Of a stretch of DNA of 64,000 nt, positions 19,740 through 41,562 are shown piece by piece. Position numbers and translations under genes: made by a program. Source of the stretch: Octopus vulgaris (Eukaryota); NCBI GenBank assembly GCA_951406725.2, contig OX597825.1, positions 61,380,001 through 61,444,000 of the forward strand, read 5' to 3'. The number at the start of each line of letters is the position of its first letter. Within the stretch, counting starts at the first letter, position 1. The notes beneath the pieces were generated by a model. The model had not been told where the DNA came from. It did no database searches and worked only from the letters and a program-made list of their open reading frames with translations.

Positions 19740-20390
19740 TACGATATACATATGAATAACGCATTTGGTCAAGATATTTTACAAATTTATATCAAAGCAC
19801 TTTAATAAAGAACATGAATATTATAAAATAATTAACAATAAAAGGATTAGAATAGGCTTTCCAGTATCAAAAAATTTGTTTAGAATTATCTCTTCTTTTA
19901 ATAAATCTTTAGACTACTTTTATAATAACAGAAACAATAATACTATTACAGAAAATGATCTAGCTAGAGATCATGATTGTAGAGATGAGGATGTTATTTT
20001 AATAATCTTTGTTTACAGAACAATATCATATATAGATGTAGGGTGGATTTGGAATGAAAGAAATTATTTTTACATAGAGTCAACAGAAAATTTTATGAAA
20101 AAACCAGATAGCAGTCCCTGAGTGCAGCTTTACGAATAGAGATAGGTTTCACAGTACTAGTCTTAGTAAACTAAGTTGGAAATTGAAGGATAGTAACAAA
20201 TTATACAAAATAAATTGGAAAATATTAGCCATGCTAGATCGTATAAAATTAATGATGCTAGATGCAACTTATGTATAGATGAATTACACCAGATACCAAC
20301 ATCTAAGAAGAAATTGCTTAATGAAAGACATGAGAATGTTCTATCTTGTACACTCTATTCTAAATATGTTTTTAGAAAATTTTATCAAGT
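19740..20390 (+). pseudogene. Penelope-like element GIY-YIG endonuclease region, decayed (Neptune-like)
   Basis: Across frames it reads ISKHFNKEHEYYKIINNKRIRIGFPVSKNLFRIISSFNK...YFYIESTENF...STSLSKLSWKLKDSNKLYKINWKILA-HARSYKINDARCNLCIDELHQI...LLNERHENVLSC. This fits the PLE pattern T.LS...W.LK...I.WKIL...Y...C.LC..E...LLN.R.E...C. Confidence 0.85.
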
Positions 20391-20659
20391 GTCTATATTT
20401 CTACTCATATGTATCCATTTATCTTCCCATGTACATGTATATATGAATAATCATATATTTGTGTATATGCATATATATATTTGTATACATGGGTACATGT
20501 TGATTGTATTTATCTGATGCTATCTATATGTTGTTATGCATATGTATGTGTTTATGTGCATATATATATATAAGTGTGTGTATATATATATGTGTGTATC
20601 TATATGCATTAATATACGTGGATTTGTATTTATGTGTGTATATATATGTATGTGTATGT

Positions 20660-23757: not shown

Positions 23758-24109
23758 TAGTTCTATATCTAAGAAATGAGGAATCATGTACATTATTTAC
23801 ATTATTTACATTTGGCAGATATTTGTCCTCATCTTGTTTGTTGTTAATACGTTTCGACTGATATACCCTCCAGCCTTCATCAGATGTCTTGGGGAAATTT
23901 CGAACCTGTGACTCTTATTCCTAAGGTATTTTTCAATATTATTATTATCATTATTATTATAATTCAGGTCACTGCGTTGAATCGAATTCGGAGTCTTAGA
24001 GTTAGTAGCCTACGCTCTTAACCACTATGCCATATGCCTGTGGTCATATGGCATAGTGTGTTAACAACAAACAAGATGAGGACAAATATCCGTCAAATGT
24101 AAATAATGT
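23758..24109 (-). mobile_element. Fold-back family F1: tRNA-like head, (AAT)n, HHR and tail, with deleted inverted arm
   Basis: The minus strand has a tRNA-like head at 24038-23963, an AAT tract, an HHR at 23888-23843 and the tail ...gatatagaactag. The inverted arm is 24042-24109. A possible TSD aaataagta lies at 23747-55 and 24110-18. Confidence 0.85.
23963..24038 (-). promoter_or_regulatory. tRNA-derived Pol III head (A/B box)
   Basis: ggcataTGGCATAGTGGttaagagcgtaggCTACTAActctaagactccGAATTCGATTCaacg: A box, anticodon-like loop and degenerate B box. Confidence 0.7.
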
Positions 24110-24277
24110 AAATAAGTAGGAGGAGTGGCTGTGTGGTAAGTAGCTTGCTTACCAACAAAATAGTTCCAGGTTCAGTCCCACTGTGTGGCACCTTGGGCAA
24201 GTGTCTTCTACTATAGCCTCGGGCTTACCAAAGCCTTGTGAGTGGATTTGGTAGATGGAAACTGAAAGAAGCCAGTC

Positions 24278-24310
<33 letters not shown>

Positions 24311-24390
24311 TCCCGGGTTGAGTTGGGGTTAACCACAGTAAATAAGGTACTCAATACATGGCAGAGTAAATTAATTTATTTTATAGAAGG

Positions 24391-24441
24391 AGCTTCTACA
24401 GGACTAGAACTGTTTCATTCAAATGAAATCATCAGGAAGCT
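24391..24441 (-). ncRNA. Type I hammerhead ribozyme, intact core (mirror copy)
   Basis: Identical to 24438-24488 on the opposite strand because of the palindrome. Confidence 0.9.
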
Positions 24442-24488
24442 TCCTGATGATTTCATTTGAATGAAACAGTTCTAGTCCTGTAGAAGCT
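24438..24488 (+). ncRNA. Type I hammerhead ribozyme, intact core
   Basis: agcttc CTGATGA tttcatttgaat GAAA cag ttctagtc ctg TA gaagct. Stem I is 6 bp, stem III is A-CAG/CTG-T, and the GUA cleavage triplet puts the cut after 24482. Confidence 0.9.
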
Positions 24489-24499
24489 CCTTCTATAAA

Positions 24500-24565
<66 letters not shown>

Positions 24566-25042: not shown

Positions 25043-25371
25043 AGTGTCTTCTACTGTAGCCTTGGGCTGACCAAAGCCTTGTGAGTGGATTTGGTAGACA
25101 GAAACTGAAAGAAGCCCGTCGCATATATATATGTATATATATATATACGTATGTATGTGTGTGTATATGTTTGTGTGTCTATGTGTGTCTGCCCCAACAG
25201 TGACGCTGGTGTGTTTATGTACATGTAACTTAGCCTTTCAGCAAAAGAGACCGATAGAATAAGTACTAGGCTTACAAAGAATAAGCCCTGGGGTCGATTT
25301 TATCGACTAAAGGCAGTACTCCAGCATTGCCGCAGTCAAATGACTGAAACAAGTAACAGAGTAAAAGAGTA
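25043..25371 (+). mobile_element. SINE family A, 5'-truncated
   Basis: Matches 13540-13870. Confidence 0.8.
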
Positions 25372-26184
25372 AGTACCCATTGAGCACTGGGATTGATGTA
25401 ACTGAGTTGCTGCTTCCCCTCGTGACCTTGTGCCAAAATTCTAAAGAATAATTACTAAAGACCTGAAAGATGTGAACTGGCAAATTTGTTGGACTATCTG
25501 AAAAAATACTTTGCTGCATTTATTTAAGCTTTTTACATCAGTTCAAATCCTGCAGAGGTCAGCTTTGCTTTTTATCCTTTTGAGATCATTAAAAGTGTCA
25601 CTCAAGTATTGTGTCAATGACCATTAAATCCCTCTCCTTAAAACTGCAGGCGCTGTACCTAAATTACCAATGATTGATGGTAATTGAAGACCTGCCATAG
25701 TTGAATCTGTATTTCCTTTCCTAGCAACTCAAGAAATATGCACAACGAAATGGTGAGTGGGTTTGATTCAATTCTGTATCTGTTAAATCAATTAGTTATG
25801 ATGGTCTTGTGCCAGTGTGAGAAAATATTTTAATTGCAGAAGGCGCCAGATTGTTTATGAATTATTGAAACATTATAATCATAGTTCATGTCAAAGTTAT
25901 CATCGCCATTCTTGGCATTGTCATAATCGCCACAGGAAATATACTTGATTGGTATTGGATGAAATATGCATGCATGTGTTTATCTGTGTGCCAATCTTAA
26001 TCTTTGATTTGACACTGTATTGACAGTTCTGACATTGTTTCTGGTTCATACACACACACACACACACACACACACAGAATCCTCCAATAGTGTCATATGA
26101 AATTTTGGACTAAAGTACCTCATTATTTGCATTATTTACATTATTTTCATTTCACAGATATTTGTCCTCATTTTGTTTGTTGTT

Positions 26185-26230
26185 AACACAACGTTTCAGG
26201 TGATATACTCTCCAGCCTTCATCAGGTGTT
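26185..26230 (-). ncRNA. Minimal type I hammerhead ribozyme, intact core
   Basis: aacac CTGATGA aggctggagagtatatcacct GAAAC GT T gtgtt. Stem I is 5 bp, stem III is reduced to the palindrome ACGT, and the triplet is GUU. Confidence 0.85.
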
Positions 26231-26277
26231 TTGGGGAAATTTCGAACCTGGGTTCTCATTCCTAAGGTATTTTTCAA

Positions 26278-26828: not shown

Positions 26829-27664
26829 CATGGGTATATGGTGTAGTAGTTAAGTTAATGTAAATAATGTACATAATTTCTCATCTCTTAAATATAGAAC
26901 TGTAAAGTACCTCACATGGAAAGAAGAGTTGGCATCAGGAAAAGCACCCTGTTCATCCAATGTCAACAAATTGAAAGTGAATGAATGTGATAATTATGAC
27001 AAAGAAAATTCAGGAAGAAGAGGAGGTGAAACTGCTGCCACTGCTGGTTTTCAGACTCTTTGTAGAATGAGAAACAAAACCTTTCAAAGAGCAGACGAAC
27101 TCAGGAGAGTCAGTTCCTATCCAGTTAAAACCACCAGCAATGAGTATCCCTTAGATATTGTCACTCAGCATCCTCCTAGGAGAAGGACAAACTGATGTAA
27201 AATCTGCAGTTTCACATAATTAAGGATTATCTCAAATTGGCTTATCGCTAGGTATTAATCATAGAAACCTTGGGGAGTGGTACTCATGCTGTACAAGTGT
27301 TTATCCATATAATCTTATGACGTACAGAACATCTTTTCATGGAACTTCATTTTTCATTCCATAAACTGAAATTCTTCTGACAATGGATGAGTGGCGATAA
27401 GTGTAGACTTAACTAGTTGGAAGCACACTGCTATGGAGATCTGCAGTGGGACTGGATGGCCATCTGAGAGGTCATGTATGGAAAGTCTGAAATGCCACTG
27501 ACAATAAGGAAACAAAAAGAGACAGCAGTCATCTGGGAAGATGGAGCAATCACCATATCTGTGTGTGTGCATGTATATATAAATATATATATCTATATAT
27601 ATATATATAAAATGAGGGAATATTATTCCAAGCTTACAAATTGATAAAAGGTGTTTTTTTTCTA

Positions 27665-39524: not shown

Positions 39525-41562
39525 GATAAGAAAATGGAGAAATACATCTAAATCAAATATCAATTACCAGATAATACTCAATCACATACTTTATTAAACC
39601 ACCACATAAGAGTCTGTAGGGTTAGATATAAAAAGCAGAACAAATCAGTGTACATAAAGGAATGTACATAAAAAAAGTGTACATAAAAAAGTAATGTTGT
39701 ATAATAAGTAGAATATATATAAAAGAGAATATAAATATAAGAAAATATAAAAATATAAGTATAGATTATATCTTACAGCTGTTTCGGCCATGTAGATAAG
39801 TATGTCTCATTTTACCAATATTAGCCCTTTATGGTAGGTCAATATATAGATATAAATGAGACATTTACAAAAATATCATAAGGCCTCTTTGGAGATTATG
39901 TAATATAAAACAGTCTACATATATACCCACATGGGTGTGGGTGCATACCCATAATACAACATATACATATACATATGAGTGCATATACTCACACTCCTAT
40001 ACATATAAAAATATACATATACATAATGATATAAGTAAATAATATAAATTAGTAAACATATAAATGTGTTCAACATCCAATGTCTCAGTTTTACGACTTA
40101 ATATTGTGATAATAAACATACACAAATTAGTACCTAGATGCAAATATACATAGTCAATAATACATTATATTTCTTCATACTAATTTCTAAAGTGTCATTA
40201 AAGTTAGCATCATTATCGTTGTCAATACCATTAATCTTATCATTATTATCATTCATAATATTATTAATAACGCTTACATTAGGATCCAGAGCGGTATATA
40301 TGTATGTCCGGTTTCCAGTTAGTAATTTTCCTTATGGCATAAATACACTATTGGATTTGAATTTAAAATTATATATGTCCGGGTTCCAGATAATAATTTT
40401 CCTTATGACATAAATACACTATTGGATTTGAATTTAAAATTATCGTAATTTAAAATTATCGTTATCTTATGATAATTTTAAATTCAAATCCAATAGTGTA
40501 TTTATGTCATAAGGAAAATTATTATCTGGAACCCGGACATATATAATTTTAAATTCAAATCCAATAGTGTATTTATGCCATAAGGAAAATTACTAACTGG
40601 AAACCGGACATACATATATACTGCTCTGGATCCTAATGTAAGTGTTATTAATAATATTATGAATGATAATAATGATAAGATTAATGGTATTGACAACGAT
40701 AATGATGCTAACTTTAATGACACTTTAGAAATTAGTATGAAGAAATATAATGTATTATTGACTATGTATATTTGCATCTAGGTACTAAATTGTGTTTGTT
40801 TATTATCACAATATTAAGTCGTAAAACTGAGACATTGGATGTTGAACACATTTATATGTTTACTAATTTATATTATTTACTTATATCATTATGTATATGT
40901 ATATTTTTATATGTATAGGAGTGTGAGTATATGCACTCATATGTATATGTATATGTTGTATTATGGATATGCACCCACACCCATGTGGGTATATATGTAG
41001 ACTGTTTTATATTACATAATCTCCAAAGAGGCCTTATGATATTTTTGTAAATGTCTCATTTATATCTATATATTGACCTACCATAAAGGGCTAATATTGG
41101 TAAAATGAGACATACTTATCTACATGGCCGAAACAGCTGTAAGATATAATCTATACTTATATTTTTATATTTTCTTATATTTATATTCTCTTTTATATAT
41201 ATTCTATTTATTATACAACATTACTTTTTTATGTACACTTTTTTATGTACATTCCTTTATGTACACTGATTTGTTCTGCTTTTATATCTAACCCTACAGA
41301 CTCTTATGTGGTGGTTTAATAAAGTATGTGATTGAGTATTATCTGGTAATTGATATTTGATTTAGATGTATTTCTCCATTTTCTTATCTTGTATTAGTAA
41401 TTTGTGGTAAATCATTTTACCTTTGCCCATATAATACAGTAAATTAATTGATTGCATCGCAATCATTAACATTTATGTATTAACTTTGTTGAGTACTTCA
41501 CTAGCAGTATATTGGATATATATTATCCCATGGAGGGTTGCATTTACAACCCCTATCTCAAT
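39524..41562. mobile_element. Large young PLE-derived fold-back: ~925-bp near-identical inverted arms plus 170-bp 3' extension
   Basis: Arms at 39524-40448 and 40467-41389, with only a handful of mismatches or indels. HHR-like motifs lie at 39770-39896 (-) and 41019-41145 (+). It is inserted in (TA)n. Confidence 0.85.
41019..41145 (+). ncRNA. Hammerhead-like motif with variant core and ~100-nt stem II (mirror at 39770-39896, -)
   Basis: atct CCAAAGA ggcc...ggcc GAAA cagctg TA agat. Stem III is the palindrome ACAGCTGT. The core differs from CUGANGA at U4 and G5. Confidence 0.6.

Follow-up and report, generated by a model that had tools for sequence, protein, structure and literature searches.

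The closest described relatives of the insertion analysed here are Penelope-like elements (PLEs), in particular the Hydra clade of C-terminal EN+ PLEs, which includes Hydra-1_Obim (Craig et al. 2021, PMC8557442). In Poseidon_Ac (PAc), the element's protein starts at two RNA-internal positions close to the pLTR–ORF junction and extends both strands of the target (PMC11167929). The tail is then the gap between RT start sites and cleavage by the hammerhead ribozyme (HHR) is dispensable (Frangieh et al. 2024, PMC11167929), with the steps after priming left unvalidated (PMC11167929). Adineta Penelope shows head-to-head inverted pLTRs, junction palindromes, solo pLTRs and a TATA+Inr promoter, and the origin of such inversions, antisense self-priming versus a sense template, is stated to be open (PMC3846280). 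Schistosoma PLEs carry dual minimal HHRs on opposite strands, 100–700 bp apart (PMC4209133), D. virilis Penelope uses a TATA-less internal promoter (PMC2377424) and retrozymes are described as PLE derivatives (10.64898/2026.07.22.740005). A recent annotation of octopus repeats includes a count of active Penelope families, and the whole word 'ribozyme' and the stem 'palindrom' have no match in its available text (PMC13282606).

Head-to-head PLE palindromes are already known, and the value of the present locus is mechanistic evidence on PLE replication. Among the insertions of a (TA)n-targeting PLE with Hydra-clade motifs it represents the shortest common kind, and we consider it probable that the unit consists of two run-off cDNAs (133 and 68 bases) copied from capped PLE RNA and joined head-to-head. 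The locus lies in a 64-kb window of the Octopus vulgaris genome (G000:C12:61380001–61444000; the whole stretch analysed), in which 24374–24505 is the sole long perfect palindrome other than simple repeats. As the first-pass annotation had read it, these 132 bp equal their own reverse complement, with 0 mismatches and 0 spacer around a centre of AAGCTT, and a further arm of about 65 bp continues on one side. Its placement of the unit in the TA tract of a SINE also holds: the flanks are (TA)15 and (AT)32 within a SINE-like repeat with 90% identity to another copy at 25043–25154. The features are as follows, with +1 defined as the first base of HHR stem I (the A of AGCTTC) in the parent element.

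24118–24278, plus strand: host SINE-like repeat, 5' part, outside the insertion; left end approximate
24279–24308, no strand: left (TA)n target tract, inside the SINE-like repeat
24309–24441, minus strand: long ('tailed') arm, HHR plus tail, corresponding to parent RNA +1 to +133 by parent alignment
24309–24373, minus strand: PLE 'tail', 65 bp, on one arm only; putative gap between the two RT start sites
24374–24505, no strand: perfect 132-bp palindrome, from self-comparison of the sequence
24391–24441, minus strand: type I hammerhead motif, predicted cut after 24397
24438–24441, no strand: AGCT, parent +1 to +4, the self-complementary 4-bp overlap between the arms
24438–24488, plus strand: type I hammerhead motif, predicted cut after 24482; stem II of 3 bp with U·U at 10.1–11.1
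24438–24505, plus strand: short ('untailed') arm, parent RNA +1 to +68, 94.1% identical to parent L172 over 68 nt
24506–24564, no strand: right (AT)n target tract

Aligned to the parent, the long arm is 93.6% identical to L172 over 141 nt and differs from a second long relative, L059, at 2 of 135 positions; it is likely to represent the first cDNA, primed at about +135–138, and the short arm likely represents the second. The window copy contains neither the parental TATA motif at −29 nor an ORF, the PLE ORF being present in the parent only.

Both hammerhead motifs are formed by the stem I 5' strand AGCTTC, the core CTGATGA, 12 nt, GAAA, stem III CAG/CTG with an 8-nt loop, TA followed by the predicted cut, and GAAGCT, and the plus- and minus-strand motifs share AGCT (24438–24441). 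The CUGANGA and GAAA boxes, an NUH triplet and stems I and III of a type I HHR are all present. A stable stem II with G10.1–C11.1 is absent, its place taken by only 3 bp and the U·U. Folding predictions assign the catalytic stem II a pair probability of 0.016 and place a competing hairpin that swallows GAAA at −8.8 kcal/mol, against −6.7 kcal/mol for the HHR fold. Rfam returned 0 matches in the window at the gathering score; at E ≤ 10 its 55 matches were of generic hairpin (miRNA) types, with no hammerhead family among them. The annotation of two intact, overlapping hammerheads therefore stands for both motifs and for their AGCT overlap, while 'intact' is a statement about the motif alone, given the 3-bp stem II, the U·U and the lack of an Rfam hammerhead match. 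Variation between copies falls mostly in N7 and loop II, and a palindromic core in loop III is predicted to be able to dimerise, a property known for PLE HHRs (PMC4209133); both features suggest that the parent carries a genuine ribozyme.

The same annotation proposed a functional switch, in which a transcript would alternate between the HHR fold and a 66-bp hairpin that keeps the ribozyme off and is a Dicer/ADAR substrate. Points in its favour are the completeness of both motifs, the chance of co-transcriptional folding, and one contig guessed to be RNA (X1 record 5) that spans the centre of some family copy; this contig has 6 differences and is the only one with 31 or more letters on both sides of the centre. 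Prediction for the full palindrome nevertheless favours the hairpin over the HHR fold by 75 kcal/mol in a read-through transcript, so the ribozyme would be permanently off, not switchable. Stem II is weak, the TATA motif is missing, the junctions of most sibling copies are imperfect, with the loss of one HHR or of both, and the geometry can be explained without selection. We thus find a regulatory switch very hard to credit; service as a Dicer/ADAR substrate, or cruciform extrusion, is plausible as a side effect.

Searching the 2.8-Gb genome (227 contigs) establishes that the window unit is a member of a large family and not a unique inversion. With the 197-bp unit as query there were 679 candidates, and all 40 scored copies were 98–100% identical over the whole unit; perfect palindromes occurred in 15 of 30 copies fetched from this set. 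The exact 30-bp centre is found at 340 loci, the 22-bp centre in either core variant at 673, and the exact tail 30-mer of the extra arm gives 3,859 matches, nearly always in (TA)n; reversed-pattern controls for these exact counts gave 0 matches. The tail count is a lower bound, as the 30-mer misses a large subfamily with AT before +1. This subfamily, represented by L178 and matches on C1, has a loop III with a 6-nt palindrome and often occurs as inverted pairs 0.1–7 kb apart. The proposal of a recent insertion is borne out: the unit appears young, since the scored copies are 98–100% identical and its arms are still identical. At position 16 it carries a base that 28 of 29 close relatives do not share, and at position 52 it differs from 18 of 29. 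The question whether inversion points cluster at AAGCTT is answered in the affirmative by the 673 loci, and a perfect AGCT centre is present in 8 of 100 copies sampled on C1.

Two explanations of the palindrome as such can be weighed against these counts. Palindromes are a known class of assembly or long-read fold-back artefact, and the locus evidence comes from assembled contigs. However, the 673 loci share one fixed centre and have differing flanks on both sides, and like asymmetric junctions occur in contigs of independent public runs (for example, X15), so that an artefact has a negligible chance of being the cause; contigs from X15, X16 and X17 cover all bins, and no piece in the public-run contigs spans the window unit. 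The second is a dedicated non-autonomous palindromic element, MITE- or retrozyme-like, amplified as a unit from master copies, for which one could cite the 40 of 40 scored copies that share the full 197 bp and the short head-to-head units that make up 58 of 69 two-arm copies on C1. Against this, junctions vary from copy to copy, and the perfect centre is found again in separate subfamilies with their variants mirrored (49 of the first 50 loci concordant). The unit has no promoter, its tail lies outside the inverted part so that no TIRs enclose it, and the parent is an RT element. We regard such an element as highly improbable.

The predicted PLE origin was confirmed by a parent with an RT + GIY-YIG ORF. 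Copies chosen by their tail often continue past AGCT into a microsatellite-rich 3'UTR of 2.2–3.4 kb and a GIY-YIG C-terminus, the latter on the HHR-sense strand. L172 is a full tandem of 3'UTR, TATAAAT at −29, AGCTTC-HHR from +1, tail, ATG at +184 and ORF. This single ORF (713 aa, 2.14 kb) combines RT and GIY-YIG, with YRDD at 347, YIG at 603, DKT in place of DKG at 116, RWR (a variant of RWK) at 38–40, a CxCX5C linker at 567–575, and CxxC (667–670) and CxH (695–697) flanking a conserved E and N. The arrangement is likewise that of a PLE: a tandem forming the pLTR, an inverted truncated copy, a tail on one end, and a TA/TG tract at the tail end in 96 of 100 sampled copies. On these motifs we classify the parent as an EN+ PLE with Hydra-clade motifs. 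It resembles the clade as described (PMC8557442) in its single RT+GIY-YIG ORF, DKT, RW[K/R], CxCX5C, and CxxC and CxH near the EN end, as well as in the HHR within the pLTR, the (TA)n targets, the inverted truncated copy and the one-end tail. It differs in having RWR where the clade has RWK, an HHR unlike that listed for Hydra-1_oBim, insertions that are mainly 200-bp head-to-head units, and a unit of about 4.5–5.7 kb (owing to the long microsatellite-rich 3'UTR) compared with <3 kb (PMC8557442); the 2.14-kb ORF and 2.2–3.4-kb 3'UTR exceed a size of 'generally <3 kb' that is descriptive, not strict.

From 89 scored candidates, a protein search yielded 92 matches; the top 16 contain no stops and are 95–100% identical. 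Homologues number 1,118, the top matches 37–52% identical and almost all unnamed; some carry PF01541/PF00078, although Pfam matched neither RT nor GIY-YIG domains in two PLE ORFs, one of them a 492-aa fragment. A set of 59 tail-to-5'UTR junctions, 19 of them inspected, yielded no intact-ORF parent of the window's own loop II variant, and the nearest long relative, L059, has only the C-terminal end of an ORF in the fetched sequence. A second DKT/CxCX5C PLE family, with a 731-aa open frame at L121:5737–7929 (+) and a fragment also in L125, sits a few kb from copies of the first. Within the window, 19759–20398 is a broken PLE endonuclease-region fragment, 22–50% identical to the L172 protein (E 6e-10). 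At 23783–24115, 26122–26250 and 26856–26901 lies a second family of short repeats, in inverted and direct arrangements around (TAT)n tracts; it carries a minimal hammerhead motif on the minus strand (cores near 26225 and 23883) and is probably another PLE family. The window also holds a near-perfect inverted repeat, 39613–40448 and 40467–41300 (827/834 identical, 18-nt spacer), with 71-bp tandem units near its centre; no HHR core was found in it.

Where the arms end is informative about the template. The sample comprised the first 100 tail matches listed for C1, with 169 arms in all; it covers one tail variant and one chromosome arm, and retains two near-duplicate pairs (L081 twice and L118/L119). 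The 5' starts of the arms pile up at a single base: 41 at +1, followed by 51 at +2 to +11 and 37 at +12 or later, with just 2 at −1, 3 at −11 to −2 and 35 at −12 or beyond. Both −1 starts come from one locus whose parent base there is A, and two of the three arms at −11 to −2 are probably over-extended alignments. At the other end are two fixed 3' termini, about +133–137 for the tailed arm and +65–68 for the untailed arm. A second, inverted arm is present in 69 of the 100 copies and ends at +65 to +68 in 60 of these; both arms reach +1 or +2 in only 20 of the 69.

Cleavage by the HHR was considered as the cause of this wall and excluded, because the predicted cut would place it at +46, where none of the 169 arms starts (one starts at +45); the template RNA would accordingly be uncleaved by the HHR. 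Structure in the upstream RNA acting as an RT block was rejected as well, the 70 nt upstream folding weakly (0 to −3.8 kcal/mol). Of 16 distinct upstream types, 15 have a TATA-like box at −29 and one has it shifted. A pyrimidine run and YAG occupy −11 to +2, with −2 to +2 fitting a splice acceptor (YAG in 15 of the 16 types), and in D. virilis the intron extends up to HHR helix I (PMC4209133), so that the wall might instead be a splice acceptor, other processing or an RT-blocking site. Yet no exon-1 sequence before +1 is shared by 30 contexts, nor by 25 tailed-arm junctions. This absence, together with the unstructured upstream RNA, argues against splicing or an RT block, and the fixed TATA spacing and an HHR cut at +46, not +1, count against this group of alternatives in general. 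We judge them very unlikely; a capped RNA start at the first base of the hammerhead is the likely source of the wall, with the YAG fit and the TATA-less internal promoter of D. virilis Penelope (PMC2377424) as points against it.

An additional base at the junctions points the same way. At 73 junctions where TATATA meets +1 directly, a hand count of the base before +1 gave 45 G (T 12, C 11, A 5), an excess with p = 4e-11 versus 25%. This extra G is absent from target and parent: among the 16 upstream types the base at −1 is T in twelve, C in three and A in one, and never G. The 73 TATATA junctions constitute the clean test. The wider counts before +1 (G 493, A 79) are indicative only, since their DY-AGCT control, with 1,340 matches, mostly picked up a natural subfamily (88 of the first 100 listed). 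The G occurs on lone tailed and lone untailed arms (L189, L206, L209; L206 and L209 are untailed and lie between TA tracts) and on both arms of some palindromes (L196, L199/200), and one long copy, L217, starts with G directly before +1 and continues through the tail into the ORF. In 139 spaced palindromes the complementary C is found at 80 of the first 100 listed arm ends, many of which can also be explained by templated inserts. The commonest spacer between two +1 ends is an identical 4-base templated insert, suggesting repeated prime-and-release during end joining. Other possible sources of a non-templated G or C are terminal transferase activity of the RT and repair polymerases. In full-length L1 insertions an extra 5' G has been attributed to mRNA capping (PMC11702581). 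In the non-subscription literature, and in PMC11167929 apart from its supplementary figures, no description was found of PLE insertions with a cap-marked 5' wall at HHR stem I.

The arms share their variants: loop II is identical in 45 of 46 pairs (28% expected), 38 of 39 of those with imperfect junctions, and N7 in 37 of 37. This comparison shows that both arms come from the same subfamily, and fits equally well with a single RNA used twice, with two RNAs of common source, or with later conversion between the arms. It is also compatible with fold-back, proposed for head-to-head Penelope palindromes (PMC3846280), in which one cDNA, or an antisense template, folds back and copies itself into the second arm; some spaced junctions do resemble snap-back or templated inserts. 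Several observations make fold-back unlikely. The second arm reaches further 5' in 18 of 69 two-arm copies (two of them likely alignment over-extensions) and so contains sequence missing from the tailed arm, as in L108, whose tailed arm ends at +1 while its second arm continues past −130; the tailed arm reaches further in 15, and 36 are within 5 nt. Lone untailed arms occur, an extra G at the 5' end of the sense strand indicates a sense template, and a zero-spacer AGCT would leave no loop. The lone untailed arms (L206, L209) and the lead of the second arm in 18 copies and of the tailed arm in 15 instead suggest two independent primings.

A pair of run-off cDNAs, our preferred reading, would arise as follows. 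By analogy with PAc in vitro, the RT-EN protein would nick both strands of (TA)n and begin synthesis at two AU-rich sites inside the RNA. With priming on the 5' copy of the repeat, the cDNAs would run to the cap after about 135 and 68 nt; the template would be capped, uncleaved sense RNA, with C often added opposite the cap, and the two cDNA 3' ends would be joined by microhomology. As +1 to +4 is the self-complementary AGCT, a perfect palindrome would be one frequent joining outcome, and its completion of both HHR motifs would follow from an RNA that likely starts at stem I. It counts against this reading that a perfect AGCT join is possible only where neither end keeps the extra C, whether it was never added or was trimmed off. 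The product would be promoterless and likely inert. Short RNAs from solo 3' repeats, or from an array on C8, could be an alternative template. This array (G000:C8:91475367–91483204; L233–L246) is a head-to-tail repeat of about 271 bp with an internal inversion, each unit comprising TATA promoter, HHR, tail, 5'UTR and the first ~45 nt of the ORF, and it supplies 29 of the 59 tail-to-5'UTR junction matches. It looks like a retrozyme-type derivative of the palindrome's PLE family, and is a candidate source of short capped RNA.

The unit as read here is akin to PAc in the extension of both strands, two internal starts, uncleaved RNA template and AT-rich target, and differs in that its RT start sites lie in the 5'UTR with TA microhomology, those of PAc being 111–118 nt into the ORF and not target-homologous (PMC11167929); the present tail is about 65–69 nt, and the 5' ends of the present family accumulate at a single position, with an additional G. 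Head-to-head inverted repeats, a junction palindrome, solo pLTRs and TATA+Inr in a pLTR are shared with Adineta Penelope, whose palindromes are 15–38 bp and read as antisense-template self-priming (PMC3846280); the present family numbers hundreds of loci and offers evidence that the template was capped sense RNA. Opposite-strand HHR pairs recall Schistosoma PLEs, at zero distance rather than 100–700 bp (PMC4209133). Like non-LTR retrozymes the unit is short, non-coding and PLE-derived with a type I HHR, but retrozymes are head-to-tail tandems able to give circles and the window unit is head-to-head and promoterless (10.64898/2026.07.22.740005). Head-to-tail HHR tandems are absent from the window unit and present in the C8 array.

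In retroviruses, synthesis that is primed close to the 5' end of the RNA and runs off at the cap yields a short cDNA, the minus-strand strong-stop DNA, and the promoter lies upstream of the terminally repeated R region. The palindromic unit would be alike in its short run-off at the cap, and would differ in being primed by target DNA at two sites and integrated as such. We tentatively raise, as a possibility that we think more doubtful than the two-cDNA origin itself, that these insertions are PLE strong-stop fossils. A U3-like TATA promoter would drive capped RNA from HHR stem I, with HHR plus tail acting as R; a dimeric RT would prime both strands, and a cDNA would have to jump to the 3' repeat to regain a promoter, failing which the two cDNAs would be joined. 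If true, this would settle the question of sense versus antisense template for PLE inversions and explain pseudo-LTR formation.

The palindrome is thus a recurrent by-product of a known element class, not a new ribozyme device, and back-to-back 'complete' hammerheads can arise in this way. Thousands of young short insertions provide a base-resolution read-out of RT starts, the RNA 5' end and the joining step, and the apparently intact ORF of L172 offers a parent protein for testing the mechanism. The octopus genome itself holds several hundred inserts capable of forming perfect hairpins, and read-through transcripts of these could enter RNA editing or small-RNA pathways.
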